In this document: positions 2,803 to 50,229 of the stretch, piece by piece
Position numbering within the stretch: the first letter of the stretch is position 1
Layout: each line of letters begins with the position of its first letter
Origin: Vicinamibacteria bacterium
Lineage (GTDB): Bacteria > Acidobacteriota > Vicinamibacteria > Marinacidobacterales > Marinacidobacteraceae
Reading direction: 5' to 3'
DNA length: 64,000 bases
Assembly: GCA_963668695.2 (NCBI GenBank)
Contig: CAXXLQ010000004.1
Location: 1,792,001 to 1,856,000 of the forward strand
Translations under genes and position numbers: made by a program
Notes under the pieces: model-generated
The model's database searches: none
What the model was told of the DNA's origin: nothing
The model's input: the letters and a program-made list of their open reading frames with translations, nothing else

Positions 2803-2980
2803 GGTGGACCCGATCGTTTGGCCCGATCGTTTGGACAGCCGTCCCCACGCCTTGGCTCTATCGGCGAGACGCGCTTTGCGGCCCTGCGGGCCGCGTGCCG
2901 GCCCCCACCGGGAGAACTGGCCGGAGGTCTGGCGTTCCAAGCCGTCCCCGCGCTTATTGCTGGGCGGCGCTCCCCAGCCC

Positions 2981-4108
2981 CTACGCGTGGACGAGCGTCT
3001 CCTCGGCGACCTCGGCGAGGGTCTCGCTGATGATCCCGAGGCTCTCGGTCACTACCTCGGGCTCGGCGCCGAAGCCGATCCGCAGGAAGCCTTCGAGTTC
3101 GAAGTGGTGCGCCGGCACCACCAGCAGGCTCCGCTCGATCCGCAGGCGCTCGATGAGGTCCTCGGACCGGATCGGGTGGTCGTAGCGCACCGCGGCGATC
3201 GCGCCCGCGAGCGGCGGCGTCCAGCTCAGCCGCACCGGGTGGTTCTCATGGGACTCCACCCAGTCGTACACCATCGGCAACTGCCGGCGGATGATGCCCC
3301 GGGTCCGCTCCAGGATGGCCGGCCGCTTGTCGAGGGCGATCTGCGCCAGCCGGTCGGCCAGCCCATTCACCGCGAGGCTGCTGTAGTCCCGGTGGGCCCA
3401 AAGCTCGGCCGCCTTCTCCTCGGTGGTGACCGTCCACCCGACCCGGAGGCCGGGCAGCCCGAAAGCCTTCGAGAGCCCCGCGTTCAGCAGGATCTTCTCG
3501 GTGCGGCCCCAGAAGCTCGGGCAATCCTCGCCGCTCAGTTCGGCGCCCCGATACACCTCGTCGGCGAGCAGCCAGGCGCCCGACCACTCCGCGATCTCCA
3601 CGATCCGGTCCATCTCGGCCTCGGTCAGCACCGCGCCGCTCGGGTTGTTCGGGTTGCAGATCGCGATCATCCGCGTCCGCTCGCTGACCGCCGCTTCGAG
3701 GGCTTCGAGGTCGGGCCGCCAGCCGTTCTCTTCGACCAGCGGGAACGGCACGATCCGCGCGCCGAACGAGCGGCAGGCCCCGATGAGCTGCATGTAGTTC
3801 GGGATCATCGCCACCACCTCGTCGCCGGGCGACAAGGTCGTCAGCGCGGAGAGGAAGTTGGCCTCGGCGGTCCCCGTGGTCACGATGATCTGGTCCACGT
3901 TCGACCCGGGGTAGAGCGCCGCGATGCGCTCCCGGAGCGGGATCGTCCCGTTCGACTGCGGATAGCCGAGCAGCGTGTCCCCGAGGTCCACCTCCCCGGC
4001 GAGTTCGGCGAGCGTCAGGGGGTGCACTCCGCTCTCCGAGATGTTCAGCCGGACGGTGTTTTCCCACCGGCAAAGGCATCGTTCCATCACGAACGGTTCG
4101 AACTTCAT
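2981..4108 (-). CDS. PLP-dependent aminotransferase class I/II
   Basis: CNPNNPSG, ADEVY, SKAFGLPGLRVGW motifs. Confidence 0.93.
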   Translation of the reverse strand: MKFEPFVMERCLCRWENTVRLNISESGVHPLTLAELAGEVDLGDTLLGYPQSNGTIPLRERIAALYPGSNVDQIIVTTGTAEANFLSALTTLSPGDEVVAMIPNYMQLIGACRSFGARIVPFPLVEENGWRPDLEALEAAVSERTRMIAICNPNNPSGAVLTEAEMDRIVEIAEWSGAWLLADEVYRGAELSGEDCPSFWGRTEKILLNAGLSKAFGLPGLRVGWTVTTEEKAAELWAHRDYSSLAVNGLADRLAQIALDKRPAILERTRGIIRRQLPMVYDWVESHENHPVRLSWTPPLAGAIAAVRYDHPIRSEDLIERLRIERSLLVVPAHHFELEGFLRIGFGAEPEVVTESLGIISETLAEVAEETLVHA

Positions 4109-4192
4109 GGGGCGCGGCTCCTCGGGTTGCTGCTGCCGAACCCTCCGGCGGCTGAACCCGCAATCCTAAGCCCACCCGCGTAACATTCCGCC

Positions 4193-5323
4193 GTGATGGA
4201 GCGGAACCCCACCCGCCGGGTCGAAATCGGGAACGTCGCCGTGGGCGGCGGCAATCCGATCGTCGTCCAGAGCATGTGCGCCACCCACACCCAGAACGTG
4301 GAGGCCACCTCCGCCCAGGCCGAGGCGCTCCGCGAGGCCGGCGCCGGGATCGTGCGCATCGCGGTGGACAGCAAGAAGGACGTCGACGCGCTCGCCGAAG
4401 TCCGGAAGCGCACGACCGCCAATCTGGCCGTGGACCTCCAGGAAAGCTACCGGCTCGCCGAGAGCGTCGCCCCGCACGTGGACAAGATCCGCTACAACCC
4501 GGGCCACCTCTGGCACCACGAGACCTCGCTGCCGGTGGCGGACAAGGTGAAGTACCTCGCCGGCGTCGCCGGGGAGCACGACTGCGCCATCCGCGTCGGG
4601 GTCAACTGCGGCTCGATGGATCCGGCGCACCAGGGCCGCTTCCACGGCGACCCGGTGGGCGCGATGGTGGCCTCGGCCGCCGAGCACTGCGAGCTGCTCG
4701 ACTCGTTCGGGTTCACCCGCTACGTGGTCTCGCTCAAGGACTCCGACCCCGCGAACGTGATCGAGGGGAACCGCCGCTTCGCGGCCGAACGGCCCGACGT
4801 GCCGCTCCACCTCGGCGTCACCGAGGCCGGCATGCCCCCCGAGGGCATCATCAAGACCCGGATCGCCTTCGAGCAGCTCGTCAGCCGCGGCATCGGCGAC
4901 ACCGTCCGCGTGTCGCTCACCCTGCCGAACCCCCGGAAACCGGAAGAAGTGAAGGCCGGCCACGAGATCCTCACCGACATCGCGAACGGCCGTTTCCGCT
5001 CGGTCCCGGAGTTCCCGAAGGACAAGCTGAACATCATCTCCTGCCCGTCCTGCTCACGGGTCGAGAACGAGAAGTTCATCGAGCTGGCGGAGGATGTCCG
5101 GGAGATGACCCGCTACGCCGAGCGTCACGCGATCACCATCGCCGTCATGGGCTGCCGGGTGAACGGCCCGGGAGAAACGGACGACGCCGACCTCGGGCTC
5201 TGGTGCGGCCCGGCGTTCGTGAACCTGAAGAAGGGCCCGCAGTCGCTCGGCGCCTACCCCTACGACCAGATCCTCCCCCGGCTGAAGGCCGAGGTGGACC
5301 GCCTGATCGCCGACCGGGTCTGA
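4193..5323 (+). CDS. ispG: 4-hydroxy-3-methylbut-2-enyl diphosphate synthase
   Basis: [46 protein letters not shown]. Confidence 0.96.
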
Positions 5324-5324
5324 G

Positions 5325-5511
5325 CGGTCGATAGACAGAGTCACGCGGCCCAGTCCTCCCGGTGGGGGCTCGGCCAGCGATGCATCCCGGCTGACCGCTT
5401 CGCTCTGCGTTGCGATCCGGTCGGAATACGGTCTGTATGCCTTCCGAATCGCGCCTTGTCAGCCGGGCGCCTCCCCGACCTCGGCGCTCACATCACTCTG
5501 TCTACCGGCCG
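5325..5511. mobile_element. MITE-like element family A, copy 1 (intergenic, between convergent stops)
   Basis: Terminal IR CGGTCGATAGACAGAGT / ACTCTGTCTACCGGCCG; core GCGATGCATCCCGGCTGA..GCGCCTTGTCAGCCGGGCGCCTC shared with five other copies. Confidence 0.8.
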
Positions 5512-5512
5512 C

Positions 5513-6445
5513 TTAGCCGGCGTCCGGCGAGTCGGCCGGATCCCGCCGCGCGGCCATGTCCTGCTGGCGGGCGGCGAAAGAAAGCTGGTGGTTGGCCAGC
5601 TGCCGCCGCCGGGTAAAGAGCCACTCGTTCAGCTCGGGAGCCGCGATTTCCGGCGCCTCCCGCACCTCTTTCTCCACGAACCCGAGGATGGTCTCGAGGA
5701 AGAAATCCTCTTCGCCCGGATAGCCCTCGTCCGTCGGGACGACGCGCCAATCGGAACGGCCCACGGCCAGTTCCGAAAAACCCGACCCCGGGAGGCGGAC
5801 CTCCCCGAGCAGCCGTTCCCCGGCGATGGGGTCCCCGCCGCGGTCTCCGGCCATGCTGGCGTGGTAGCACACCAGGAGCCGCCGGTCGAGCTCGTGCGGC
5901 GGTCCGAAGCGGGTCACTCCGGCGAAGGTGAGCGTGGCGTAGAAGATGCCGCCCGCAGCCAGCAGCCGCCGGCCGAGCGATAGCGCCGTGCCCCGCCCGA
6001 GGAGGTCCCAAAAGGACTGGGCGAGCAGCAAGTCGAAGGCCCCGTCCTCCCGCGGGTCGAACCCCCGCGGTATGGCGGCTTCGCGAAACCGCACGTCGAA
6101 GGCCCGCCCGCCGCCCCCGAAGCGGAGCCGGTTCGCGTCCTCTTCCTCCATCCGGAATCCCGCCGCGTCGGCCCACGCGTGGACTTCCTGCCGGTAGACG
6201 GCGAGCGGGACGGGGTCGCGGTCCACTACGGTGAACTCCACCTGCGGAAACGGCGCGAACAATCGGGTCCATTGCCGGAACGCGCCCCCGGCGCCACCTC
6301 CGCACTCGAGGACCCGGAGCGGCCGGTCCGCCGGCATCCGCGCGAGGGCCTGCGCAACCGCGTTGCGCACCGCGAGATTGACGCCGCGCGCATCCACTGA
6401 GGCCTTCGCCCGCAGATAGCGGACGCCACCCCCCCCGTGGGGCAC
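5513..6445 (-). CDS. Class I SAM-dependent methyltransferase
   Basis: RVLECGGGAG motif I; FDLLLAQSFWDL. Confidence 0.75.
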   Translation of the reverse strand: MPHGGGGVRYLRAKASVDARGVNLAVRNAVAQALARMPADRPLRVLECGGGAGGAFRQWTRLFAPFPQVEFTVVDRDPVPLAVYRQEVHAWADAAGFRMEEEDANRLRFGGGGRAFDVRFREAAIPRGFDPREDGAFDLLLAQSFWDLLGRGTALSLGRRLLAAGGIFYATLTFAGVTRFGPPHELDRRLLVCYHASMAGDRGGDPIAGERLLGEVRLPGSGFSELAVGRSDWRVVPTDEGYPGEEDFFLETILGFVEKEVREAPEIAAPELNEWLFTRRRQLANHQLSFAARQQDMAARRDPADSPDAG

Positions 6446-6614: not shown

Positions 6615-6805
6615 GGGTGATTGGGTTTGGGAGTTTCGCGGCCCTGCGGGCCGCGATGCCGGTCTGAAGACCGGCGCTCCTACGCTCCTGCGCCATCCCC
6701 GGTTAGTCCAGCGCGAGGCGGGTGATTGGGTTTGGGAGTTTCGCCTCCCTGCGGTCTGCGATGCTGGCCAGTTCTCCCGGTGGGGGCCTGAAGACCGGCG
6801 CTCCG
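6615..6805. repeat. Two tandem REP-like (family B) units; the second carries the 21-bp insert
   Basis: GGGTGATTGGGTTTGGGAGTTTCGC..GCGATGC..CTGAAGACCGGCGCTCC occurs twice. Confidence 0.85.
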
Positions 6806-11049: not shown

Positions 11050-11246
11050 CAACCCATGGACAAAGTCACGCGGCGTTCGAGCGGCGATGCATCCCGGCTG
11101 AAACACTCCGCTGCGCGTCGCTCATCGTTGCGCTTCGGTCGAAATACACCAGGTATTCCTCCCTCGCGCGCCTTGTCAGCCGGGCGCCTCGCCCCCACCG
11201 GGAGAACTGGCGCTCTCGGCGCTCACGTCACCTTGTCCATAGGCTG
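11050..11246. mobile_element. MITE-like family A copy 3 (intergenic)
   Basis: Ends CAACCCATGGACAA..TTGTCCATAGGCTG; shared core. Confidence 0.8.
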
Positions 11247-12294: not shown

Positions 12295-14826
12295 GTGCGG
12301 TTCGCGCTCCGGATGGCGTTCCGGGAACTTCGTTCGTCCGCCCGCCGGCTCTCGCTCTTCTTCGTCGCGGTGGGCATCGGCGTCGCGGCGATCGTGGTGC
12401 TCCGCTCGGCGGCCGACAGCCTGCAGTCGGCGCTTACCAACGAGTCGCGCTTCCTGATGGCCGCCGACGTGACCGTTTCCACCGGGGAGGGCTTCGACGA
12501 CGAAATCGAGGCCATCGTCGACGACGTCGCCTCCGGACACCCCCTCACCGGGGTGGCGCGCTCGGCCCAGATCGCGACCCTCGCGCGCTCGGCCGACGAC
12601 CCCCTGCGGGGCGCGATGGTGGAGCTCAAGGCCGTGGACGGCGCGTTCCCGCTCTACGGCGAGATGGAGATCGCGGGGGCCCGCTTCGGGCCGGAGCTGC
12701 TCGCCGGACGGGGGGCGCTGGTCCGGCCCGAGGTGCGGGTCCGGCTGGGCCTCGAGATCGGGGATCCGATCCTCCTCGGCGGGGAGCCCTTCGAAGTGCG
12801 CGGCGACCTGCTCAAGGAACCGGGCGCCGGGATCGATTTCTTCCGGCGCGGGCCGCGGGTGCTGGTCGGGCTCTCCGATCTGCTCGAAACCGGCCTCTTG
12901 GACGTCCCGGAACGCGCCCGCTGGGAGGTCCTGTTCTCCGTGGACAGCGAGGCGGCGGTCGGCGGGCTCTCCGCGGGACTCCAGGCCGCGCTCGAGGACC
13001 ATCCGGTCCGGGTGCGGACCTACCGCCAGACCGGCGACCGGATCGCCCGCCGGATACGCCGGGGCGAGGACTACCTGAGCCTCGCGGGATTCGTGATCCT
13101 GCTGCTCGGGGGGATCGGCGTCTTCAGCGTGGCGCGGGCCTTCACCCGCCAGAGCCTGCCGTCGGCGGCCATCGAGCGCTGCCTCGGGGTTCCCTCGCGC
13201 ACGATCCTGCTGATCGCGCTGCTGCAGATGGCGGTCCTCGCCGGGTTGGCGAGCGCTTTCGGCATCGCCGCCGGAGCAGTGGCGCTGCAACTCTTCATCC
13301 CCGAGGTGGAAGTGGGCGGCCTCCAGATCGCGGCGCGCCTCACCCCCGCGGCCGCGATGCAGGGTGCGTTTACCGGAGGGTTGGTCTCGCTGTTGTCCGC
13401 CGTGTTCCCGCTGCTGCCGCTCCGCCGGGTCCGGCCGCTCGGGCTGCTCCGGAGCGGGGACATGCTGGACGAGCGGGGGTCTCCGGGCGCGCGGCGGCTC
13501 GAAGGAGCGGTGGCGGCCGGGGCCGTCTTGCTGTTCTTCGGGCTGGCGGGCTGGCAGTCAGGGTCGCTCCGCATCACGCTGGCGGTCACCGGCGGGTTCG
13601 TGGTCGTCGCGGTGACGCTCTGGATCCTGGGCGGCCTGATCCTCCGCGCCCTGGCCCCGCTCGCGACGGCCCGCGCGTTTGCGGTCCGCCACGCGGTGCG
13701 CACCGTGCTCCGGGGCGCCCGGCAGGTGCGGGTGGTGCTCGTCGCCCTCGGCGTCGGGGTGTTCCTGGTGCTCGCCACGGTGGGCATCGAACGCAACGTG
13801 CAGCGCGAGTTCTCCTTCCAGGAGAGCAGCGACGACCCCGATCTGTTCTTCCTGGACATTCAGGCCGACCAGGTGGACGGGGTCCGCGCGAACGCGGCGG
13901 CCCGGGGGGTGCCCGACATCGCGCTGATTCCGGTGCTGCAGGCGCGGATCCAGGGGATCTTCGGCCGCGACGTCCACCTCGAGGACCGGGCCGCGGTGCG
14001 GCGCGCCGGCGGGCTCTCGCGGGAATACACGGTGAGCGCGCGCGACTCGCTCGAAGACAACGAGATCGTCACCGAGGGCGAGTTCTGGGGCGACCGTCCG
14101 GCGGAAGGCGTCGAGGTCTCCATCGAGAACTGGGTGCAGGAGGACCGCGGCGTCCAGCTCGGGGACACGATGCGTTTCGAGATCCTGGGCGAGATGCTCG
14201 ACGCCCGGGTCACCTCCATCCGCGACGTGGAGTGGCGAAACGCGCGAAACGGCGGCTTCACCTTCCTCTTCCACCCGGACAACGTCCAGGACTTCCCGAT
14301 GTCCTACGCGGGGTTCGTGCGGGGTCCCGACGACGTGGTGGAGCGGGCCCGCTTCCAGGGCGCGGTGGTGGGGGAATTCCCGAACGTCTCGGTGGTGGAT
14401 CTCCGCGACGTGCTGGACACGATGCAGCAGGTGGCCGACAGCGTCGCGCTCGCGATTCGCATCGTGGGCCTCATCGCCCTCGTGGGCGGCCTGCTCATCC
14501 TGATCGGCACCGTGGCGGTGCACATCGGCGCCCGCCGCCGCGAGACCGCGGTGCTCCGCGTCTTCGGAGCGGGGCGCAACCGGGTGCTCGCGATCACCCT
14601 GCTGGAACACGGCGTCATCGGCGCGGTCGCAGGGGCCGCCGCCGCCGTGGGCGCTTCCGCGACGGCCTTCTTCGTGGTGCGGCAGATCATGCTGCTCCCC
14701 TTCGAGGCGGACCCGATGCTCCTGCTGCTCGCGATCGTCCTCCCGGCGCTCGGCGCGGCCGCGGTCGGTGGCCTCGCCGCGGTGGACATCCTCCGCAAGA
14801 AACCCCTCGCCGTCCTCGCGGACTGA
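12295..14826 (+). CDS. ABC transporter permease (YbbP/FtsX-like)
   Basis: ELKAVDGAFPLYG, FFLDIQ motifs; two TM clusters; tesA-ybbA-ybbP synteny. Confidence 0.92.
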   Translation: MRFALRMAFRELRSSARRLSLFFVAVGIGVAAIVVLRSAADSLQSALTNESRFLMAADVTVSTGEGFDDEIEAIVDDVASGHPLTGVARSAQIATLARSADDPLRGAMVELKAVDGAFPLYGEMEIAGARFGPELLAGRGALVRPEVRVRLGLEIGDPILLGGEPFEVRGDLLKEPGAGIDFFRRGPRVLVGLSDLLETGLLDVPERARWEVLFSVDSEAAVGGLSAGLQAALEDHPVRVRTYRQTGDRIARRIRRGEDYLSLAGFVILLLGGIGVFSVARAFTRQSLPSAAIERCLGVPSRTILLIALLQMAVLAGLASAFGIAAGAVALQLFIPEVEVGGLQIAARLTPAAAMQGAFTGGLVSLLSAVFPLLPLRRVRPLGLLRSGDMLDERGSPGARRLEGAVAAGAVLLFFGLAGWQSGSLRITLAVTGGFVVVAVTLWILGGLILRALAPLATARAFAVRHAVRTVLRGARQVRVVLVALGVGVFLVLATVGIERNVQREFSFQESSDDPDLFFLDIQADQVDGVRANAAARGVPDIALIPVLQARIQGIFGRDVHLEDRAAVRRAGGLSREYTVSARDSLEDNEIVTEGEFWGDRPAEGVEVSIENWVQEDRGVQLGDTMRFEILGEMLDARVTSIRDVEWRNARNGGFTFLFHPDNVQDFPMSYAGFVRGPDDVVERARFQGAVVGEFPNVSVVDLRDVLDTMQQVADSVALAIRIVGLIALVGGLLILIGTVAVHIGARRRETAVLRVFGAGRNRVLAITLLEHGVIGAVAGAAAAVGASATAFFVVRQIMLLPFEADPMLLLLAIVLPALGAAAVGGLAAVDILRKKPLAVLAD

Positions 14827-14849
14827 TCAGGGAGACCGCGTACCGCCGA

Positions 14850-15085
14850 GCGCGCAGAAGCGCGGGGACACCCAGTGCTAGGAGCGCCGGTCTTCAGGCC
14901 CCCACCGGGAGAACTGGCCAGCATCGCCCGCGTAGCGGGCGAAACTCCCATCGCCGAGCGCGCAGAACGGGGACGGCTAGAAGCGCCGACCTCCAGGTCG
15001 GCACAGCCCGCCGCAGGCGGGCGGAGTCGCGTATCGCTGAATTGCGTCGAGCGCGGCCGAGCACGGGACCGCCGACCTCCAGTCC
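14850..15085. repeat. REP-like family B cluster
   Basis: GGAGCGCCGGTCTTCAG.., GCGCCGACCTCCAGGTCGGC hairpins, GCGAAACTCCCATCGCCGAGCGCGCAGAA linker. Confidence 0.8.
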
Positions 15086-15243
15086 CCCATTGTTGACCTT
15101 GTTGATTCACTCGGAATGGGCAGCGGCGATCTATTCAGGTATCTTCCGTTCTTCTATCTTCTGTTCTTCGGGGGCCTTATCTTGCCGCTGCTTCTGACTA
15201 TCGTCCGCTGTTCTCGAAGGGCGGGCGCCTGAAGGTACTGAGC

Positions 15244-19166: not shown

Positions 19167-21349
19167 GGGGCGCCGCGGTGTCGCTCAACAGCCTGTGGAT
19201 GAAGTGGCGTGAGCGCCGAGGCGGGCGAGGCGCCCGGCTGACAAGGCGCATGAGGGAGGAGCCCCCACCGGGAGAACTGGCCCGAGTGTATTTCGACCGA
19301 AATGCAACGCAGAGCGGAACGAAGTGGAGCGGTTCAGCCGGGATGCATCGCTCGCCGAGCCCCCACCGGGAGAACTGGGCCGCGTCACTTCATCTGCAGG
19401 CTGTTTTGGTCGCGGCAATCCTCCCCGCGGCCCTGGCGGCGCAGGACACGTCGCCCGGCGCGGACGAGCGGCTGCTCGCGGCCGCCCGCGACGGGCAAGT
19501 CGAAGTCGTACGGTCCCTCCTGCGGGAGGGGGCGGACGTGAACGCGGCGCGCGGCGACGGGTTGACCGCGCTGCACCTGGCCGCCGAGGGCGGGCATCGG
19601 GCCGTGGCCGATGCGCTGGTCGCGGCTGGCGCCGCGGTCGACGCCGGCACGCGCATCGGTCGCTATACGCCGCTCCAGGTGGCCGCCGAGGGCGGGCATG
19701 GCGCCGTCGTCGCGCGCCTGCTCGAAGCCGGGGCGGACCCGAACGCTCGGACGACGAACAGCGGCGTGACCGCGCTGCACCTCGCCGCCGGCGCCATCGA
19801 TGGCCGGTCGGCCGTGGCCGCGCTGCTCGACCACGGCGCGGATCCGAACGCCCGGGAGGGGTCGGCGGGGCAGACGCCCCTGATCTTCGCGGCGGTCGCG
19901 AACCGGGCCGCTGCCGTGACCGCGTTGCTCGCCGCCGACGCCGACCCCGGCATCACGACCGCCGTGGTCGACGTCCTGCCCGCTCTGGCGCTGGACCGGG
20001 AAGCCAACCGCCGCTTCCGCGACATAATCGGCGCGCCGCCGGAAACGCTCGGACCGTACGGGCCCGAGGTGGACCCGGAAGCCGAATCGCCGGGCGAGCC
20101 CAGCCCGGCCCATGTCCAGGCGGCCGTCCGCGCGCAACGCGACTTTCTCCGCTCCGGCTACGACGTCGGTGACGTGAGCCCGCACTCGCTCGGCCGCGTG
20201 GGGCCCGACTACCCGGGCGGTCCCGACCTCGTGCGCCCGCCCTACCGCGAGGTCCTCGTCGGCCGGACCGGCGCACTGACCGCGCTATTGCACGCCGCCC
20301 GCGAGGGCCATATCGAAGCCGCGACGGCCCTCGCGGGCGGCGGCGCGGACCTGGATCAGGTGAGCGCGGACGGCACCAGCCCACTCCTGATGGCGACGCT
20401 CAACGGCCAGTTCGACCTGGCGCTCGTCCTCATCGAGCGCGGAGCCGATCCCGATCTTGCCGCTTCGACGGACGGCGCCACGCCGCTCTTCGCCGTCCTC
20501 CAGACCCAGTGGGCGCCAAAGTCCAACTATCCGCAGCCGCGCGCGCAGGACTTGCAGGAGGCCGAACACCTGGACGTGCTCCGCGCGCTGCTCGAAGCCG
20601 GGGCCGATCCCAACCCCCGCCTGAACACGCACGCTTGGTACTGGGAATACGGTCTCACCAAGTTGGGGATCGACCTCACCGGGGCGACGCCGTTCTGGCG
20701 GGCCGTCTTCGCCCAGGATCTCGAGGCGATGAGACTGCTCGTCGCGCACGGAGCGGATCCCCACATTCCCACCCGCTGGCCCGAGGTCGGGATGCGGGAG
20801 CGCCGGCAGCAGGACGGCCGCCAGCAGGAGGACTCCGCGCTGCCCTGGATCCCGGAGGGGGCGCCGAACGCCTGGCCGATCCATGCCGCGGCGGGGGGCG
20901 GATATCTGGGACTGGGCGCGTTCAGCGTTCGGAACCGACCCGATCAGTTCATTCCCGCCGTGAAGTACCTGATCGAGGAACTGGGCGCGGACGTGAACCA
21001 GCGAGACTCCTGGCTCTACACCCCGATGCACTACGCGGCTTCCCGGGGCGACAACGAACTCATCGAGTACCTCGTGTCGCAGGGCGGGGACGTCACCGCG
21101 ATCACCCGCCTCGGACAGTCCACCGCCGACATGGCGCGCGGAGGCCGGGCCGGGTTCTTCACCCGCGTCCCGTACCCGGAGACGGTCGAGTTGCTGACCA
21201 GTCTCGGCGCGACGCTCGAGTGTCTCCACACGCACTTCCTGGATACCGGAGACTTCTGCCCCGCCGCGGGCGTCAACGACCCGTGGGCGCCGGCCGCGAC
21301 GGATGAGGAGCAAAAGCGGTCCGATTCCGGGAAGACGGGGTCGCGCTGA
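19163..21349 (+). CDS. Secreted ankyrin-repeat protein with an in-frame 219-bp MITE in its signal peptide
   Basis: Many GxTALHxAA..GADxN repeats; ATGA overlap with the DUF1552 stop. Confidence 0.88.
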   Translation: MRGAAVSLNSLWMKWRERRGGRGARLTRRMREEPPPGELARVYFDRNATQSGTKWSGSAGMHRSPSPHRENWAASLHLQAVLVAAILPAALAAQDTSPGADERLLAAARDGQVEVVRSLLREGADVNAARGDGLTALHLAAEGGHRAVADALVAAGAAVDAGTRIGRYTPLQVAAEGGHGAVVARLLEAGADPNARTTNSGVTALHLAAGAIDGRSAVAALLDHGADPNAREGSAGQTPLIFAAVANRAAAVTALLAADADPGITTAVVDVLPALALDREANRRFRDIIGAPPETLGPYGPEVDPEAESPGEPSPAHVQAAVRAQRDFLRSGYDVGDVSPHSLGRVGPDYPGGPDLVRPPYREVLVGRTGALTALLHAAREGHIEAATALAGGGADLDQVSADGTSPLLMATLNGQFDLALVLIERGADPDLAASTDGATPLFAVLQTQWAPKSNYPQPRAQDLQEAEHLDVLRALLEAGADPNPRLNTHAWYWEYGLTKLGIDLTGATPFWRAVFAQDLEAMRLLVAHGADPHIPTRWPEVGMRERRQQDGRQQEDSALPWIPEGAPNAWPIHAAAGGGYLGLGAFSVRNRPDQFIPAVKYLIEELGADVNQRDSWLYTPMHYAASRGDNELIEYLVSQGGDVTAITRLGQSTADMARGGRAGFFTRVPYPETVELLTSLGATLECLHTHFLDTGDFCPAAGVNDPWAPAATDEEQKRSDSGKTGSR
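19189..19403. mobile_element. MITE-like family A copy 4 (in frame in ankyrin gene; two 21-bp inserts)
   Basis: IR CAGCCTGTGGATGAAGTGGCG / CGTCACTTCATCTGCAGGCTG. Confidence 0.85.
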
Positions 21350-21438: not shown

Positions 21439-22801
21439 ATGAAGATCCAGTCGCTTTGCCTGACCTTCGGGTTCGCCGCGGCTCTAGCCGTCTCGGCGTG
21501 CGAGGACGGCGACCGCGCGGCCGTCGCAGAGATGGGGGGAGCGAACGGCGGCGTCGCTAACAGCCGGTGGCAAAACCCACGCGGCGTTCGACCGGCGATG
21601 CATCCCGGCTGAACCACTCCGCTTCGCTCCGTTCTGCGTTGCGTTTCGGTCGAAATACACTCGGTATTCCTCCCTCACGCGCCTTGTCAGCCGGGCGCCT
21701 CGCCCCCACCGGGAGAACTGGCCGGTCTCGGCGCTCACGCGGGTTTCACCACAGGCTGTTAAGGGAGGAGACGACCGCACCGGGCCCTACGATCCGGTGC
21801 CCGGCTGGTGGAAGGTCGCACCTGACCACGACAACGAGTGGGGCTGGGGGCAGGTGGCCGGCGTGGCGGTGGACCACGCGGACCGCATCATCGTCGTCAC
21901 GCGCGGCGACTGGCCCGCGGATGGCTCGGTCCCGCGCGAGGGGCGGTTGCGGCGCACGAACTTCGTTGTCGTCGCGAACGCGAACGGCGAGATCGTCGAA
22001 CAGTGGGCGCAGTGGGACTCGATCTTCACGCTCCCGCACCAGGTGTACATCAGTCCCTACGACCCCGACCGGCACGTGTGGGTGATCGACAGCGGCGGCG
22101 GCGAGGGGCACATGCAGGTCGTCAAGTTCACGAACGACGGCAGCGAGATTGTCATGCGCCTCGGAGAGCGCGACCACCCGAAGACCCGCGAAGCGGCGCG
22201 TGCACGATCCGACTGGGGACCACACACTTACGGCTGGCCATCGAAGCTGGCGTTCCTTCCTGACGGGAGCTTCCTGCTGGCGGACGGGTATTGGAACTCT
22301 CGCATCATCAAGTATTCCGAGGACGGAGAGTTCATCATGCAGTGGGGCGCGCTCGGTACCGGGCCCGGCGAGTTCGATCTCCTGCACGGACTCGCCGTGG
22401 ACGAGGATCGGGTGTACGTCGCCGACCGCCAGAACGAGCGGCTTCAGTTGTTCACGCACGACGGGGAGTTCATCGAGGAATGGCCCGACATCTTCGACCC
22501 CGTGAACATCTGGCTCGATGAGAACGGCGCCGTGTGGGTCCTGGACGCGACGCTGAACCGCGTGCTGAAGTACAACCGGGAGGGCGTCTTGCAGGACTAC
22601 TGGGGCGCATACGGAGCGGCCGGCGCCCTCGGCCGCGGCGTGTGGCCGGGAGGCCTGTCGCTCCCGCACCAGTTGGATATGGACAAGGATGGCAACGTTT
22701 ATATTGCGTCCTACAGTGGCGGCTGGATCAACAAGTTCACCCCAAAGCCGGGCGCGGACCCGGACAGACTTCTGGGTCCCCGGCTGCTCCTGGCGAACTG
22801 A
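21439..22801 (+). pseudogene. NHL-repeat beta-propeller lipoprotein interrupted by a MITE
   Basis: Signal MKIQSLC..AVSAC; removing 202 bp rejoins ..GVAK-GGDDRTGPYD; DGYWNSRIIK, GEFDLLHGLAVD, VADRQNER. Confidence 0.8.
21561..21758. mobile_element. MITE-like family A copy 5
   Basis: CTAA|CAGCCGGTGG..CCACAGGCTG|TTAA. Confidence 0.88.
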
Positions 22802-23525: not shown

Positions 23526-23539
23526 GCCCTGGAACCAAG

Positions 23540-23705
23540 AAACGCCGACCTCCGGCCAGTTCTCCCGGTGGGAGCCGGCATCGCAGCCCGAGAGGGCTGC
23601 GAAACCGCGTAATGCGGAACCGCGAAGAAGCGCGGGGACGGCTTGGAACGCCGACCTCCGGCCAGTTCTCCCGGTGGGGGCCGGCACCGCTACGCGAAGC
23701 GCAGC
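23540..23705. repeat. REP-like family B cluster with two 21-bp inserts
   Basis: AACGCCGACCTCCG[21-mer]CGGCA twice. Confidence 0.8.
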
Positions 23706-28209: not shown

Positions 28210-31106
28210 CGCAGACAATGCCCTCCGACTACCGGGCGATCCACCGGGAGAACGAACGCCGCTACGGGACGGGGGTCCGGGACTACGGAGACAAGCTGCT
28301 GCCGCACCGCTACGGCGACCGCACCCACTTCATCTACGAACTCCTGCAGAACGCGGAGGACGCGCTCGCGCGGCGGCAGGCCTGGACCGGTCCTCGCTCC
28401 GTCCAGTTCCACCTCAGCCCGGGGAACGCCGCCAGTTCTCCCGGTGGGGGCCTCCAGACCGGCACCGCGGGCCACCGGCCCGCGAAACGGGCAGCGCCGT
28501 CCGGCAGGATGATGCCGGCTGCAGCCGAGCTGCGGGTCCGCCATTTCGGCCTTCCGTTCGACGAAGCCGACGTGCGGAGCATCTGCGGCATTGGAGAGAG
28601 CACCAAGGATCCGGGGTTCACCGAGATCGGTCGCTTCGGCATTGGCTTCAAGTCGGTGTACGCCTTCACCGACCGGCCCGAAGTGCATTCCGGCGGGGAG
28701 AATTTCGCCATCGAGCACTACGTGCTGCCGGTGGCGGCGCCCGCGCTGGTCCCCCGCGCCGCGGACGAGACTGTTTTCCTGCTCCCGCTCCGGGGACTCG
28801 CCGACGCCGGCGAGATCCGGCAGGCGGTGCGGCGCCTCGCGCCCCGCGCTCTCCTTTTCCTTCGCGAGATCGAGGAGATCGAGTGGCGGGTCGCGGACGG
28901 CGCCTCGGGCCTCTACCTGCGCGAGACGTCCTCGGCGGACGACGGAGTGCGGCGAGTGAAGCTCGTGGGGGAGGCCGAAGGCCACCGGGAGACCGAACAG
29001 ACCTGGCTGGTGTTCGCACGGGCGGTGCCGGGCCCGCCGCGAGGCGTCGAGCGCCACGTGGAAGTGGCCTTCCGCCTCGGCGAGGAAGGCCGTCCGGAGC
29101 CAGTGCCGGAGCGGGATACGCCGCTCTTCGCGTTTTTCCCCACGACCCTCCCGACGGGTCTTCGATTTCGGGTGCAGGGCCCGTTCCGAACCACTCTGGC
29201 GCGGGACAACGTGCCTCTCGGCGACCCGTGGAACGAAGGCCTCGTCGCGGCGACCGCCGAAGTCCTGACGGGTGCGCTTCGCTGGCTGCGCGATCACAAC
29301 CTTCTCGACGCCACGACGCTCCGGTCGCTGCCGCTCGGCCGCGACCGGTTGCTCGACGGCGCGCTGTTCGCGCCCCTCCGTGAGGCGGTCTCGGCGGCGC
29401 TCCGCCGGGAGCCGCTCCTGCCGCGCTTCGACGGCGGCTTCGTGCCGGGGGAGCGCGCCCGTCTGGCAAGCCCCCGGTGGCTCCGCGACCTCTTCGGGCC
29501 GGAACAGTTGGCCGCGCTCTTCAGGGACGCCGGTGGCGCCGAGTGGCTCACCGACGAGGTGTCGGCAGGGCGCACCGACGAGCTGAGCCGCGTTCTCCAG
29601 GATGAGGTGGGGGTGAGGCCCCTCCGGCTCGACGGCGTTCTCCGCCGTCTGGACGCCGATTTCCTGGAGGCGCAGAGCGAAAGCTGGATTCGGGGGCTCT
29701 ACGAAGCCTTCGGCGAGCACGGCGTGCGGGGCGCCCGGGTCGCCGATCTCCCACTGGTCCGGCTACAGGACGGCGTCCACGTCCCGGCCTTCGTGGAAGG
29801 CCGCCCCGCCGCGTTTCTGCCGGGTCCGCCGGGCGGGGCGCCCACCGATCTGCCCCTCGTCCACGACGACGTCCTCGATTCGCCGGAGGCCGGTAAGTAC
29901 CTGCGCGACCTCGGGCTCCAGGCGCTCGATCCGGTGGAACTGGCGCTCCGCCGGGCGCTCTCGAAGTACCGGTCGGGCCCGGCCGTCTCGGACGAAGCCG
30001 ACTACGCCCGGGACATCGGTGAACTGGCCCGGGCGTATCGGGCCGGTTCGCTGCCCGGGCGCCGCCGGCTCGAAAAGGAGCTGCGGCGGCTGCGCTTCGT
30101 GAGGACGGTGGACGCGAGGGGTGGCCGCCGCCGGCTTTCCCGGCCGGGAGACGCCTTCTACGCGACCGGCCCTCAAAAGGACCTCTTCGGAGGCCTGCCG
30201 GCGGTGCGGTTCGTGGACGACGGTTGTCCGGCGCTCGACGAGGAAGGCGCCCGTCATTTGATGTACGCGTGCGGCGCCCGCCCGCTGCTCGAACCTTTCG
30301 AGGAAAGGCCGACGCTCGCGGACGAAGACCGGGAGGAGATCCGCAGCCGGACGCGGCGTGCCGACCCGGAGGGCGGCATCGCCTGCATCGAAGACTGGAA
30401 CCTCCGGGGACTCGACCCGCTGCTCGCGGGGGTCGTCCGAATGTCACCCGACGAACAGGCGCGGCGCCGGGAGATGCTCCGGCGGGAGTTGGAGGAGCTT
30501 TCCGGCATTCACGACCTCGCGGTCCGTTCGGGGAAGTACCAATGCGACGCGCGCGACGGGTCGCAGGTCTCCGTGCAGGTCCCGGCCGCCTGGATGCGCC
30601 GCCTCACGCGCAGCGCCTGGGCTCCCGAGGCGCGGCCGCTGGTCCAGATCGGCCCGTCCGAGCCTGGCCGCCGGGGTCGGGGCCCGGCGCCGGTCGAAGT
30701 GCGTCCCGGCGCCGGCGGCGGAGTGGACCGCCCCGATGAGGAGGAACGAGAGCGTCGCCTCGCGGTGGAGAGTCAGGCGATCGCCCTCATCCTGGAACGG
30801 GAACGCTGGGTCCGCGCCGCGGAGGACAACCCGGGTTTCGACCTCTACCGTGAGGATGCGACCGGGCAGAAGACCCTGCTCTGCGAAGTGAAGGCGCTCA
30901 GCGGCACGCTCGAAGAGCACCCGGCCCGACTCACCCCGAACGAACTCCGCCGCGCGCTCGAATACGGCGAGAACTACTGGCTGTACATCGTGGAGGACCT
31001 GGCCGGCGACAACCCGCGCATCCTGCGCATCCGGAATCCGGCGGGCGCCGCGGCCCGCTTCGCCTTCGGTCCGGAGTGGCGGGATAGGACACAGCCACCG
31101 CCGTAG
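28206..31106 (+). CDS. Sacsin-like GHKL ATPase with C-terminal DUF3883/NOV-C nuclease-like domain
   Basis: YELLQNAEDA, IGRFGIGFKSVY; C-terminal NPGFDL..EVKAL..LTPNE..YWLYIV. Confidence 0.85.
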   Translation: MTQTMPSDYRAIHRENERRYGTGVRDYGDKLLPHRYGDRTHFIYELLQNAEDALARRQAWTGPRSVQFHLSPGNAASSPGGGLQTGTAGHRPAKRAAPSGRMMPAAAELRVRHFGLPFDEADVRSICGIGESTKDPGFTEIGRFGIGFKSVYAFTDRPEVHSGGENFAIEHYVLPVAAPALVPRAADETVFLLPLRGLADAGEIRQAVRRLAPRALLFLREIEEIEWRVADGASGLYLRETSSADDGVRRVKLVGEAEGHRETEQTWLVFARAVPGPPRGVERHVEVAFRLGEEGRPEPVPERDTPLFAFFPTTLPTGLRFRVQGPFRTTLARDNVPLGDPWNEGLVAATAEVLTGALRWLRDHNLLDATTLRSLPLGRDRLLDGALFAPLREAVSAALRREPLLPRFDGGFVPGERARLASPRWLRDLFGPEQLAALFRDAGGAEWLTDEVSAGRTDELSRVLQDEVGVRPLRLDGVLRRLDADFLEAQSESWIRGLYEAFGEHGVRGARVADLPLVRLQDGVHVPAFVEGRPAAFLPGPPGGAPTDLPLVHDDVLDSPEAGKYLRDLGLQALDPVELALRRALSKYRSGPAVSDEADYARDIGELARAYRAGSLPGRRRLEKELRRLRFVRTVDARGGRRRLSRPGDAFYATGPQKDLFGGLPAVRFVDDGCPALDEEGARHLMYACGARPLLEPFEERPTLADEDREEIRSRTRRADPEGGIACIEDWNLRGLDPLLAGVVRMSPDEQARRREMLRRELEELSGIHDLAVRSGKYQCDARDGSQVSVQVPAAWMRRLTRSAWAPEARPLVQIGPSEPGRRGRGPAPVEVRPGAGGGVDRPDEEERERRLAVESQAIALILERERWVRAAEDNPGFDLYREDATGQKTLLCEVKALSGTLEEHPARLTPNELRRALEYGENYWLYIVEDLAGDNPRILRIRNPAGAAARFAFGPEWRDRTQPPP

Positions 31107-31130: not shown

Positions 31131-32672
31131 ATGCCGCTATCGCCGGGAACGCCGCCAGTTCTCCCGGTGGGGGCCTTCAGACCGTCATCGCCGCCGCAGG
31201 CGGCGCAACCACGCCCGTCCGATCTCTGCGCCACTCCGGCGACCGAACTCGCCCGCCGCATCGCCGGCCGCGAGGTCTCGGCGGTCGAGGTGATGAAGGC
31301 GCACCTCGCCCGGATTCATGACGTCAACCCGCGCCTGAATGCGATCGTCACGCTCCTCCCGGAGGAGGGGCTGCTCGCGGAAGCGGAGAATGCCGACCGG
31401 GCGGTGGCGGCGGGCGACCCGCTCGGGCCGCTCCACGGGCTCCCCGTCGCCCACAAGGACCTGACCCTCACCCGCGGGATCCGGACGACCTTCGGGTCCC
31501 CGATCTTTGCCGACTTCGTCCCCGAGGAGGACGCGCTGATCGTGGAGCGCCTGCGCGCGGCGGGCGCGATCACCATCGGCAAGACGAACACCCCGGAGTT
31601 CGGTGCCGGCTCGCAGACTTTCAACCCTGTCTTCGGCCCCACCAGGAACCCCTGGGACGAGACGAAGACCTGCGGGGGGAGCAGCGGGGGCGCCGCGGTG
31701 GCGCTCGCGACCGGGATGGTCCCGATCGCCGACGGCAGCGACTACGGCGGCTCGCTCCGCAACCCGGCGAGCTTCTGCGGGGTCGTTGGCCTCAGGCCCT
31801 CGCCCGGCCGGGTTCCGGTGTGGCCCAACGAGACCCCCTGGTACCCGGTCCCGGTGCAGGGGCCGATGGCGCGGAGCGCCGCCGACGCCGCCCTCATGCT
31901 GAGCGCCATCGCGGGGCCGGATCCCCGGGCGCCGCTTTCGTTGCCGGATCCGGGCGAGGTCTTCCGGCGCCCGCTCGACCGGGACTTTCGGGATGTCCGG
32001 GTGGCGTGGAGCGCGGATTTCGGCGGTGTCCCCTTCGACCCGCGCGTCCCGGCGGCGCTCGCCCCGGCGCGCAGCGCCCTCGAAGCGATTGGCTGCGCGG
32101 TGGAGGATGCCGACCCGGACCTGAGCGGCGCCGCCGAGGCGTTCGACCGCTGGCGGGCGTGGTACTTCGAACTGAACTGGGGTCCGCTACTCGACCGCCA
32201 CCGGGACGAAATGAAGGACACGGTGATCTGGAACATCGAGCAGGGCAGGGGGCTCAGCGCCTCGGCGCTGGCCGAGGCCTCCCGCCGCTGGACGGCGCTG
32301 CTCCGGCGGGTGCGCGCTTTCTTCGAGCGCTACGAGTTCTTCGTGCTGCCGGTGTCGCAGGTCCCGCCGTTCGACGTCACGGTCCCGTATCCCACCGAAG
32401 TCGCCGGGGTGCCGATGAAGACCTATACCGAGTGGATGGCGTCCTGCGCCTGGGTCTCACTTTTCGGCGCTCCCGCGGTCTCGGTTCCGGTCGGCGCCAC
32501 CCCCGAAGGGCTCCCGGTCGGCCTCCAGGTCGTCGGCCGCCCCCGCGACGACTTCGGCGTCCTGCAGCTCGCGCACGCCCTGGAGCAGGAGCCTCGGGTC
32601 GTCGCAGTGGCGGCCTCCGCGCGTCTCCGGCATCCTTCCGGCAGCAAATCCTCGGGGAGGACCGGCGCATGA
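31131..32672 (+). CDS. Amidase signature family protein (start uncertain)
   Basis: HKDL, GKTNTPEFG, GGSSGG, GSDYGGSLRNPA. Confidence 0.93.
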   Translation: MPLSPGTPPVLPVGAFRPSSPPQAAQPRPSDLCATPATELARRIAGREVSAVEVMKAHLARIHDVNPRLNAIVTLLPEEGLLAEAENADRAVAAGDPLGPLHGLPVAHKDLTLTRGIRTTFGSPIFADFVPEEDALIVERLRAAGAITIGKTNTPEFGAGSQTFNPVFGPTRNPWDETKTCGGSSGGAAVALATGMVPIADGSDYGGSLRNPASFCGVVGLRPSPGRVPVWPNETPWYPVPVQGPMARSAADAALMLSAIAGPDPRAPLSLPDPGEVFRRPLDRDFRDVRVAWSADFGGVPFDPRVPAALAPARSALEAIGCAVEDADPDLSGAAEAFDRWRAWYFELNWGPLLDRHRDEMKDTVIWNIEQGRGLSASALAEASRRWTALLRRVRAFFERYEFFVLPVSQVPPFDVTVPYPTEVAGVPMKTYTEWMASCAWVSLFGAPAVSVPVGATPEGLPVGLQVVGRPRDDFGVLQLAHALEQEPRVVAVAASARLRHPSGSKSSGRTGA

Positions 32673-48154: not shown

Positions 48155-48770
48155 TCAGTCCTCCTCGCCGCGGAGCCGCCGGATGTGCGCCCAGCGTTCT
48201 CTCAACCACTTCGATTGTCCCGGCAGCAGCTCGCACCGCCCCATGTCGTCCTCCTGCGCTTGGCTCCAGATCATCGAGTTGCCCATCCACCGCCAGCCGC
48301 CGCAGCGTTCGCACGTACGGCTGACACAGTTGTAGGGAAGGCTCATTGCCGTTCCGTGGCACCGGGGGCAATCCGGGCACACGGGTTCCGCGTCTTTAAC
48401 AGCCTGTGGTGAAACCCACGTGAGCGCCGAGACCGGCCAGTTCTCCCGGTGGGGGCGAGGCGCCCGGCTGACAAGGCGCGTGAGGGAGGAATACCGCGTG
48501 TATTTCGACCGAAACGCAACGATGAGCGGCGCGAAGCGGCGCGGTTCAGCCGGGATGGATCGCCGGTCGAACGCCGTGTGGGTTTTGCCACAGGCTGTTA
48601 AGGTCAACCCTTGGCAGGTCCACGGGGTCATGGGTGCCGCTCGGAAGGAGTGCGTACCAGCTTCGGCCCGGTCCCTCCGCGTCGAGCTTGACGAGCAACC
48701 CGGCCCCGGCGGCGCCAAGATCGGCGATCCCGGCCACCTTATCGAATCTGATGGGACGGATCCTGGTCAC
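48155..48770 (-). pseudogene. Small Zn-ribbon protein gene disrupted by a MITE
   Basis: GGAGGAG SD + GTG 48770; removing 202 bp gives a 137-aa ORF with CPRC..CERC. Confidence 0.7.
48400..48597. mobile_element. MITE-like family A copy 6 with perfect TTAA duplication
   Basis: TTAA|CAGCCTGTGG..CCACAGGCTG|TTAA. Confidence 0.9.
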
Positions 48771-48784
48771 TTCAAACTCCTCCG

Positions 48785-49132: not shown

Positions 49133-49150
49133 GGCGTTTCTCCTTGGATT

Positions 49151-49353: not shown

Positions 49354-49381
49354 GCTTTACATCATCATGATGAGGTAAAGC
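49354..49381. other. dif-like 11-6-11 palindromic site
   Basis: GCTTTACATCA-TCATGA-TGAGGTAAAGC. Confidence 0.4.
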
Positions 49382-49424
49382 GGCGGTTTCACTGATCAGT
49401 GAATGCCGTGTCCCACCGCAATCG

Positions 49425-49811
49425 CTACCAGAGCCGCCGGACGCCGTATCGGTCGAACACCGACTCGTTCGAGACGAGAACGAGATCGTGGATGAGCGCC
49501 TGGGCGATCAGCATTCTGTCGAACGGATCACGGAGCGGCCCCGATAGACCGCCCGCCCGACTCGCATCGCGAACCGTGATGCCTAGTTCGGCGAAGCCCT
49601 GTCCCGCAATCCCGGACCGAACATCCTGCGCGATCAGTTCGCCCCCCGACAGTTTGCCGAGGCGGTGTTTCGTCGTGATCTCCCAAGCCGAAGCGGCGCT
49701 AACAAGAATCTCGTTCGTTTCATTGGCTATGGCGCGGCGGGCTGGCGTGGACAGCCGTTCGCTGCCGCTCAACCACCACAGGAAAGTGTGCGTATCGAGG
49801 AGCAGCCGCAC
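49425..49811 (-). CDS. vapC: PIN-domain (VapC) toxin
   Basis: LLLDTHTFLWW, SAASAWEI, DPFDRMLIAQA. Confidence 0.93.
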   Translation of the reverse strand: MRLLLDTHTFLWWLSGSERLSTPARRAIANETNEILVSAASAWEITTKHRLGKLSGGELIAQDVRSGIAGQGFAELGITVRDASRAGGLSGPLRDPFDRMLIAQALIHDLVLVSNESVFDRYGVRRLW

Positions 49812-49814
49812 CGG

Positions 49815-50045
49815 CTACCTCTCCCAGGCTTCCAGCTCGGTTTCCGGGAGCGGTTCGAAGAAGCTGTCGGGCACGACGAGCCGTCCCTCCATCGCACCGA
49901 ACTGCCGCTTTCCGCGCTCTTTGCACGGAACGAGCCGAGCCACGGGAGTGCCGTTGCGGGCGATGACCACCTCTTCTCCCGCTTCAACCTGAGCCAGCAG
50001 GCGGGAGAGATGCGTCTTGGCCTGATGGACATTCACCGTAGCCAT
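49815..50045 (-). CDS. Phd/YefM antitoxin
   Basis: VNVHQAKTHLSRLL..GEEVVIARNGTPVARLVP. Confidence 0.93.
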   Translation of the reverse strand: MATVNVHQAKTHLSRLLAQVEAGEEVVIARNGTPVARLVPCKERGKRQFGAMEGRLVVPDSFFEPLPETELEAWER

Positions 50046-50066
50046 AGGGAGCCTCCGTTCACGACT

Positions 50067-50086
50067 TTAGTCAATAGTATGACTAA
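50067..50086. promoter_or_regulatory. Putative TA operator palindrome
   Basis: TTAGTCA-ATAGTA-TGACTAA. Confidence 0.6.
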
Positions 50087-50229
50087 GCATCACTTCCGTG
50101 TCAAACCAGCTTCCTGTTCAACGCCGCAGGCGCCCCGCGCTGCCCTCCGGAGCCCTTTTCCGGGTGGCGCCAGCCTCTGGCTGGCGATGCCGGCCTGAAG
50201 GCCGGCGCCAGTTCTCCCGGTGGGGGCCC

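Follow-up and report, generated by a model that had tools for sequence, protein, structure and literature searches.

A 21-bp sequence inserted many times into hairpin repeats of sponge-associated Vicinamibacteria, and its role as an IS110 target

The small dispersed repeats SDR1-8 (SDRs) of Nostocaceae, attributed to Elhai et al. 2008, are reportedly 21-27 nt long and lie inside other repeats and mini-transposons, some of them being self-nesting. Their mobility is said to have been inferred from comparisons of filled and empty sites; one family reportedly inserts at HIP1, three families (SDR4-6) were reported with a common fold, and the mechanism was reportedly unknown. The movement of units too small to have transposase sites at both ends has been an open question since these cyanobacterial repeats. 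A unit of this kind, here called the stamp, is described in a stretch of 64,000 nucleotides (C4:1792001-1856000, the whole of which is called the window) from a 4.10-Mb Vicinamibacteria assembly with 67.5% GC (G000, the studied genome). The completeness of this assembly is 91.7%, and gene absences given for it are limited by that figure.

The stamp and the SDRs, its closest known counterparts, are reportedly alike in size, sharp ends, filled and empty alleles, and nesting in repeats and in themselves. They are unlike in phylum and in sequence, and the stamp is without a conserved hairpin. A first description of the window, made from its letters and here called the sequence-only reading, held that no described system matches; this is too strong in view of the self-nesting mobile repeats of 21-27 nt reported from Nostocaceae. 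To our knowledge, a rule of replacing two or three bases, in-frame insertion into a gene and a tie to IS110 elements have not been reported for SDRs. The new points are the replacement rule, the in-frame gene insertion, the stepwise gain of stamps in a single copy of a miniature inverted-repeat transposable element (MITE), and a landing-site role for two IS110 lineages. The SDR work is cited in PMC5861425 and PMC3116915. In the papers searched, no match was found for a 16-base part of the stamp core, nor for the genus name.

The IS110/IS1111 elements with bridge RNA (IS621, ISPpu10) have no inverted ends and insert site-specifically into intergenic repeats or stem-loops, according to abstracts (10.64898/2026.03.19.712850 and others). 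Their geometry (target-left, core dinucleotide, element, core, target-right) is seen here for three lineages, with GT in the stems of repetitive extragenic palindromic (REP) sequences and with GG or TT in the stamp. Unlike an IS110 element, the stamp encodes nothing, is about 100 times smaller, does not keep the target core on both sides and often removes three bases. By function, it resembles the REP-like IS110 targets described in the abstracts on ISPpu10 and IS621.

The REP, BIME and REPIN-RAYT systems have in common with this one abundant intergenic GC-rich hairpins, mosaics and the homing of insertion sequences (ISs). They are unlike it in that no Y1/RAYT gene was found in the studied genome and that the stamp is non-palindromic and interrupts hairpins. 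IS elements targeting REPs were reportedly described by Tobes and Pareja in 2006. Classical MITEs (Correia/NEMIS, nested MITEs) are, like the stamp, non-autonomous, high-copy, intergenic and sometimes nested; unlike it, they have terminal inverted repeats, target duplications and a length of at least 50 bp, none of which the stamp has.

Sequence, hosts and filled or empty sites of the stamp

The stamp is the 21-mer [G/C]CCAGTTCTCCCGGTGGGGG[C], and the fixed unit that is inserted is [G/C]C-CAGTTCTCCCGGTGGGG-G[C]. The window holds 14 copies of GCCAGTTCTCCCGGTGGGGGC at up to two mismatches, all of them listed by the sequence-only reading: 11 are exact, those at 19359 and 23555 have one mismatch and that at 5349 has two. 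From 100 dinucleotide shuffles of the window, no match is expected. A pattern search of the whole studied genome for the 21-mer with up to three mismatches gave 1,634 stamps (599 exact, 648 with one mismatch, 327 with two, 60 with three). In the motif alignment, information content is near maximal at positions 1-18 and at background within 1-2 bases of either side, the conserved block being positions -1..20. The first base is G in 61% and C in 39% of the copies, 92% of which have a G just ahead of it. None of the six frames contains a stop codon, as had been noted. Predicted folding is not significant (-1.9 and -1.4 kcal/mol, z +0.42 and +0.54; 126 and 136 of 200 shuffles equal). Terminal inverted repeats were not found, the ends GCC../..GGC having only three complementary bases. 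Nor was any replichore strand bias found: counts on the + and - strands are about equal in all 200-kb bins.

Host classes and flank clusters were counted on the non-duplicated part of contig C4, which holds 1,488 copies (0.41 per kb). The family MITE-A (about 230 bp) hosts 1,206 of these; 131 lie in arms of REP-like hairpins and 151 elsewhere. MITE-A has stamps at four positions, each of its two terminal repeats being followed by an inward-pointing stamp. The flanks form 128 clusters, 77 of which are singletons. From the share of MITE-A and the number of clusters, it follows that most stamps multiplied as passengers of their hosts; independent insertions would number tens to low hundreds. The statement that every copy lies in a MITE or REP hairpin holds for the window (14 of 14) and fails genome-wide, where 1,337 of the 1,488 do so and at least one of the others is in a protein-coding gene. 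A strict coding test (open reading frame, ORF, of at least 300 amino acids; GC at third codon positions above 0.82 on either side) was passed by 2 of 1,568 C4 stamps, insertions into short or atypical genes being such as would escape it; one of the two was examined and confirmed as genic.

Insertion into unique DNA is found in a gene for an RND/AcrB-type transporter. The studied genome (both haplotypes) and its sister G001 read GAGCCCG-GCCCCCACCGGGAGAACTGG-CGGGATG; the other 14 of the 16 genomes of the genus read GAGCCCG-CG-CGGGATG or equivalent (..GGEPARDAA..). Twenty bases stand for two (net +18), in frame, and the product gains six amino acids (..GGEP-GPHRENW-RDAA..). Homology at the flanks is at most 1-3 bases. 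Given this gene insertion, hairpin hosts are a preference and not a requirement.

Stepwise gain is found in one orthologous MITE-A copy (19176..19406 in the window), which has one stamp in G008, two in G000 and four in G004 and is absent from G001. The MITE-A sequence around the added stamps is unchanged across G008, G000 and G004, and a rare internal variant 13 nt from the insertion point is common to the three genomes, which argues against long conversion tracts. The repeat mosaics of these symbionts grow by stepwise addition.

The sequence-only reading had proposed to look for filled/empty polymorphism, and the stamp is found to segregate between strain haplotypes of the assembly itself. 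Contig C1 and C4:304184-421223 are about 99.5% identical; C3 and C4:3505186-3538141 are haplotypes with 97.5-99.7% identity; the two ends of C4 overlap (C4:9354-148038 and C4:3775642-3913787, about 99% identical). The contamination figure of 9.3% reported for the assembly is due to such strain variants of the same regions having been assembled. Two neighbouring MITE-A units have ATA in one of C3 and C4 and a stamp in the other. Where the ends of C4 overlap, they differ at a REP site at 11089 (one base versus 20) and at MITE-A positions 2 and 1 (sites 46903 and 90725); haplotypes also differ in tandem-copy number. Because filled and empty alleles of one locus are found both between species and between strain haplotypes, the stamp is a true insertion and not an ancestral part of one repeat, which was one of the objections that the sequence-only reading had raised against itself.

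The replacement rule given by that reading (two or three bases lost, net +18 or +19, no target duplication) agrees with every alignable filled/empty pair. The bases lost to the 21-mer are either two, namely GT or GC in REP stems (+19), or three (GCG, TAT, GGA, CGC, CGT; +18); in an alternative notation, the same events are a 20-mer replacing one or two bases. No target-site duplication was found in any of these pairs. Across flank clusters, the target has a weak consensus (..C-G-C-S-G, then the stamp, then C-C-G..). Preferred targets are GC-rich stems (..CCG-NN(N)-C(C/G)GGC..) in REP-like hairpins and MITE-A; several are centres of small palindromes (CCCG-CG-CGGG, CCG-GT-CGG). At least seven flank contexts are present in the window (MITE-A positions 1, 2 and 4; the REP 5' arm in both orientations; the REP 3' arm; the site behind the hairpin at 50207), matching the seven non-homologous positions first described. 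That a fixed oligonucleotide, far more conserved than its hosts, was written repeatedly and independently into non-homologous sites is likewise borne out. In G018, a genome of another genus, the 19-mer lies in different REP types, where it replaces GT, CG or GA; one stamp is nested in its own CCGG-T-G, and the form CCAGTTCTCCCGG[20-mer]GGGG is found. Stamps enter copies of themselves, which gives nested and tandem forms.

These sites also bear on a process without a dedicated enzyme, namely short-tract gene conversion or replication template switching between GC-rich hairpin repeats (quasi-palindrome correction), followed by amplification of the host repeats. It would account for the concentration of stamps in MITE-A (1,206 of 1,488) and REP arms (131), for junctions that vary by one base (+18 or +19) and for targets at the centres of small palindromes. 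Filled REPs of one type have a private C-to-T change in common and therefore spread as filled units. Such a process is quite unlikely as the source of the stamp: the RND-gene insertion is in unique DNA with flanking homology of 1-3 bases at most, the same sharp-ended unit is found in at least ten unrelated flank contexts and in the REP families of another genus, and internal MITE variants beside new stamps are unchanged.

Counts across genomes, also proposed by the sequence-only reading, were made with the exact 19-base core and a reversed-motif control. The family comparison includes 28 genomes from seven genera; the outgroup includes 16 genomes from two sister families. The core is present in 22 of the 28 family genomes and in five of the seven genera (1 to 1,123 copies); it was found in none of the 16 outgroup genomes, and the reversed control gave zero everywhere. 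Numbers range from 6 to 1,123 within the genus of the studied genome (more than 100-fold) and are 9, 9 and 218 in a second genus (24-fold). This spread is the signature of lineage-specific bursts. The native hosts of the stamp are a sponge-associated family of Vicinamibacteria (Acidobacteriota) that comprises 'Ca. Marinacidobacterium' and its relatives; by a conserved gene, the studied genome falls in this class, beside metagenome-assembled genomes bearing the name 'Candidatus Marinacidobacterium'. Among the public sequencing runs listed, 20 of 24, from nine studies, hold the window or part of it, as judged from short Logan contigs that are broken at repeats; some of these runs are labelled sponge metagenome. 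An artefact (adapter, barcode or assembly error), the other objection raised at first, is hardly credible: of 28 genomes assembled independently, 22 contain the motif, two species have it in frame within a gene, and the window, or part of it, is in runs of nine studies.

A motif selected by the host (a protein-binding or DNA-uptake site) and kept wherever it arises would explain an identical 19-mer across five genera and its very high density of 0.41 per kb. It is very unlikely: close relatives have copy numbers more than 100-fold apart, 2 of 1,568 C4 copies passed the strict coding test (one being confirmed in a gene), and the stamp shows insertion polymorphism between strains, self-nesting and no replichore strand bias. 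A DNA uptake sequence in particular was rejected on the coding test and on the range of 1 to 1,123 copies within the family.

Element-L and IS110 lineages at the stamp

Element-L is a repeat of about 230-300 bp; a search for stamp halves gave about 25 copies of 148-378 bp in the studied genome. Its left end reads [G/C]CCAGTT-GCTGTGAAAATGCAG and its right end ..CATGAGGGTT-TCTCCCGGTGGGGGC. The stamp equals the first 7 or so bases of Element-L plus its last 14-16 or so, and the flank contexts of Element-L are the same as those of solo stamps. Thirteen of the 15 remaining genomes of the genus have the left end, some of them being poor in solo stamps. In G010, five Element-L bodies lie in tandem between a single left and a single right stamp half; the internal junctions of this array (right interior to left interior) resemble circle junctions.

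Three IS110 lineages are distinguished. Lineage A, the sole IS110 gene of the studied genome, is inserted in REP stems with GT on either side, which is the GT that stamps replace. Lineage B (441-488 amino acids) has a right end ..TGGA[A/G]AGT that abuts CC-ACCGGGAGAACTGG at 12 of 30 scanned IS110 loci (G004, G009, G014). Both junctions were read in all four G014 copies; this lineage targets the stamp at a GG core. A thirteenth locus (L131) lies inside a stamp already occupied by Element-L. Lineage C is found in G001 (locus L113, about 1128-2891), where it is flanked by GCCCCCACCGGGAG-AA and AA-CTGGG, and its ends are related to those of Element-L. Since Element-L shares these ends, it is a miniature of lineage C, which targets the stamp at a TT core. 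Insertion between the two halves of one sequence, with a common core, was found for lineage B, for lineage C (at L113) and for Element-L. The stamp is thus the exact target of two IS110-family lineages (GG and TT cores) and of the derived MITE Element-L, as read from these junctions.

The departure of an IS110 element or of Element-L restores an intact stamp. The sequence-only reading had listed an excision footprint, or joined ends of an IS, among its candidates. The stamp is indeed the joined terminal bases of Element-L; Element-L and an IS110-family element are inserted into the stamp at a TT core, so that the stamp is a restored target and not a scar that explains its own spread. Stamp halves on either side of a gene, also to be looked for according to that reading, were found around IS110 genes in G001 (lineage C) and G014 (lineage B), with the right junction also at lineage-B loci of G004 and G009, and around no gene in the studied genome.

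The same junctions may be read the other way, as a shell plus cargo: Element-L or an IS110 element flanked by stamp halves would transpose, and a solo stamp would be the residue after the cargo is excised at the TT or GG core. The identity of the stamp with the first 7 and last 14-16 or so bases of Element-L, and the common flank contexts, fit such a residue. Genomes rich in Element-L are poor in solo stamps (34 left ends versus 6 in G010, 64 versus 28 in G006), and a unit of 230-300 bp is physically able to circularise. At least one Element-L lies at MITE-A position 4, which is filled by solo stamps in hundreds of paralogues, and entry into an existing stamp is the simplest account of it. An enzyme recognising stamp ends would still be required. 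Only solo stamps were seen in the gene and at the polymorphic sites, and relatives show no remnant of cargo there. A target occupied by Element-L in one genome and completely empty in another was not found at the two loci tried, where relatives lack the whole composite, so that this pair of loci does not discriminate between shell and cargo. Transposition as shell and cargo is an unlikely origin for solo stamps.

Several candidates for an element ending in the stamp were rejected. Loci L128 and L129 (G004, G008), taken as an autonomous Element-L with an IS110 transposase of 437 amino acids, have IS ends of their own with a GT/AC core; their IS110 is nested in the internal REP of Element-L. The IS110 of 541 amino acids in G018, a genome of another genus in which stamps have burst, is present in three copies and has left ends ..GGAGCGCC-TATAAC.. 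that lie inside a REP and not in a stamp. The joined ends of an IS resident in the studied genome were rejected, as left/right pairs are all 148-378 bp apart and solo ends are degenerate copies. The large repeats of the studied genome (an IS4-like element, an IS256 element and a 2.2-kb DDE element) have ends unrelated to the stamp. Rfam searches of five Element-L loci and of the IS110 locus gave no family at E <= 1.

Element-L right ends (e.g. C4:716860-716901) show GGAGGA, seven bases and ATG, directed outward through the right half of the stamp; in a circle, this ATG would read on into the left end. The motif may be a remnant of a start assembled at the junction of the parent IS. A fragment of about 950 bp, present in two copies (C4:311069-312016 and 792954-793903), ends with ..CTCCAGGAGAGT directly followed by CCACCGGGAGAACTGG; it looks like the right part of a lineage-B element left at a stamp.

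Candidate writers of the stamp

The favoured reading, held at somewhat better than even confidence, is that the stamp is a non-coding, unstructured mobile element of 20-21 bp that serves as an IS110 landing site and is written in trans. Writing in trans would follow from its having no coding capacity. The phrase 'minimal mobile unit' of the sequence-only reading remains the best description. An IS110-type recombinase that treats the stamp as a donor-only mini-element is the leading candidate writer, with a chance well short of even. The mini-element would be the 17 bases between two GC dinucleotides. Copying would yield a single strand of the stamp, with or without a cargo such as Element-L, and this strand would be inserted at half-matching sites.

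The IS110 geometry is obtained only where the target core is GC or GT; the product is then T_L-GC-17 nt-GC-T_R, with net +19 (sites 2901 and 23555). Seventeen bases plus the core are about the size of an IS110 donor site. IS621 is described as excising a single-stranded circle by means of its donor arms only and as inserting at half-matching sites (10.64898/2026.08.31.748434). Rather doubtful is the more specific proposal that the stamp is a donor-only remnant of a bridge-RNA element, moving as a single-stranded circle of about 19-21 nt or borne by cargo. A recombinase acting in trans would write it into half-matching GC-rich stems. It would then be the smallest natural mobile DNA yet seen, making landing pads for further IS110 elements across the genome, including six-codon insertions in frame in genes.

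Several points weigh against the favoured reading or its writer. The writer is a candidate only. Among the loci examined, no IS110 copy has stamp-like ends. The studied genome, with the most stamps, has a single IS110 transposase gene, of the REP-targeting lineage; in G019, which lacks IS110 genes, 34 stamps are present. A conservative IS110 reaction predicts the target core on both sides and a constant +19; in five of eight contexts, three bases are gone and the net change is +18. The 17-mer is bordered by GC/CC..GC for every type of target (GT, CG, GA, TAT), and the target core is never kept on both sides. A circle of 19-21 nt cannot be double-stranded, and we know of no such reaction. Complementarity between IS110 left ends and the stamp is not significant (its score was reached by 35 of 300 shuffles for lineage B and 207 of 300 for lineage C), in a test that is weak because the lineage with a known REP target gave only 25 of 300. 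Many polymorphic sites are in MITE-A, with hundreds of filled paralogues as possible conversion donors. Independent events may number tens and not thousands (128 flank clusters, 77 singletons).

The distribution of recombinase genes bears on the same question. PF01548 (DEDD recombinase) genes are found in 11 of the 28 family genomes. Among family genomes in three contigs or fewer, the seven with IS110 genes are all stamped (6-1,123 copies); the eight without IS110 genes have 0, 0, 0, 0, 0, 1, 9 and 34 stamps. The co-occurrence is only a hint because the genomes are kin, and 'IS110 needs stamps' would account for it no less than 'IS110 makes stamps'.

A patch templated by a reverse transcriptase (RT) and a non-coding RNA, suggested at first, would give a fixed insert with few target bases lost, as in target-primed synthesis. 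It is highly improbable, there being no RVT_1 (PF00078) candidate in the studied genome at 91.7% completeness, even in a first loose look, and no Rfam family in Element-L or the IS110 locus. Writing by a retron, a diversity-generating retroelement or another RT was rejected on the same PF00078 result. Transposition of the IS200/IS605 type was also rejected. For Y1/RAYT (PF01797), two candidates were scored and none passed; for TnpB, none was above threshold in the studied genome, where one match reached 21.7 bits against a cut-off of 26.3; and stamps have no strand bias.

The system is tractable: the 19-base core is invariant, bursts are recent (6 to 1,123 copies in one genus), alleles segregate, a clean gene insertion is available, and several IS110 (bridge recombinase) lineages that recognise the stamp are at hand as candidates. 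If a bridge recombinase writes the stamp, this would be natural stamping of a short fixed sequence with self-made landing pads, which bears on programmable insertion tools and their off-target rules. Even if the stamp is only a target, three natural IS110 target/core pairs (GT, GG, TT) are available for the study of target choice.

Copies in the window and neighbouring features

The copies in or beside REP-like hairpins come first. The exact stamp at 2901..2921 (- strand) lies in the 3' arm of a REP-like hairpin; the sister-species loci L001 and L002 have the intact hairpin GCGTGCC-GAC-CGGAGGTC (net +19), with 97.7% flank identity to L002. The exact stamp at 6767..6787 (+), in the 5' arm of a REP-like hairpin, has an empty twin 100 bp upstream, the hairpin GCGATGCCGGTCTGAAGACCGGCGCTCC at 6655..6680 (+, read from the sequence); the extra REP unit holding the stamp is absent in L001 and L004. 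At 23555..23575 (+), a stamp with one mismatch lies in a REP 3' arm, and G004 is empty (GACCTCCG-GC-CGGCATCG, net +19). The exact stamp at 23661..23681 (+), also in a REP 3' arm, is filled in G004 too, where the copy has since mutated; it is an older insertion common to both genomes. The exact stamps at 28431..28451 (+) and 31154..31174 (+), in REP 5' arms, have empty paralogues at 47662 and 39003, and the host REP of the former is absent in G001. A further exact stamp in a REP 5' arm, at 14898..14918 (-), was found by pattern match, the orthologous regions being rearranged. The exact stamp at 50207..50227 (+) is directly behind the hairpin GCCGGCCTGAAGGCCGGC; its empty paralogue is at 41375 (CCGGC-GGT-CCCTAG).

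The remaining copies are in MITE-A. A stamp with two mismatches at 5349..5369 (+) was placed at position 4, next to the right terminal repeat, by pattern match and flank reading; the MITE around it (about 5317-5540) is wholly absent from L001-L004. The exact stamp at 11191..11211 (-) is at position 1 of a MITE that G001, G004 and G008 lack at their orthologous loci. The MITE-A copy at 19176..19406 (no strand assigned, ends approximate, from the comparison of orthologous loci) holds two stamps. That at 19261..19281 (-), exact, is at position 2, which is empty in G008 (GAGGGAGGA-ATA-CCGAGTG) and filled in G000 and G004 (+18); that at 19359..19379 (-), with one mismatch, is at position 4 and filled in all three. 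In a run of another study (X8), one contig joins 19175 to 19407, so the whole MITE-A copy is missing in the strain of another sample. The exact stamp at 21702..21722 (-), at position 1, is filled in G004 too; position 2 of this MITE is empty in G000 (CTCGG-TAT-TCC) and filled in G004. The exact stamp at 48436..48456 (+) is at position 1 of a MITE copy whose positions 2, 3 and 4 are empty (at 48483, GAGGGAGGA-ATA-CCGCGTG). The empty counterparts at 6655-6680, 47662, 39003, 48483 (ATA) and 41375 read as quoted in the sequence-only reading.

In four runs, the word depth summed over contigs for the repeat bins 14817-15133, 18938-19571, 21474-21790 and 23376-23692 is 10 to 1,000 times that of neighbouring genes; the repeat families of these bins are very abundant in the samples of those runs, possibly in several organisms. 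A 2.2-kb IS with a DDE_Tnp_1 transposase and ends CTGAACCCGACTTCGCC.. is found at C4:1786003-1788216, just upstream of the window, and at C4:3128216-3130428, in loops of REP hairpins; one copy is directly behind a stamp. Two arrays are found elsewhere on C4: about 22 kb of tandem repeats at C4:2803874-2826790, with self-match offsets of a few hundred bases and 92-94% identity, and a 1.7-kb array at C4:574312-576045 with offsets of about 64 bp. In the window, the ORF at 15244-17742 has the PSD/PSCyt domain set (DUF1592, 1588, 1585, 1595, 1587) typical of planctomycete-type proteins.

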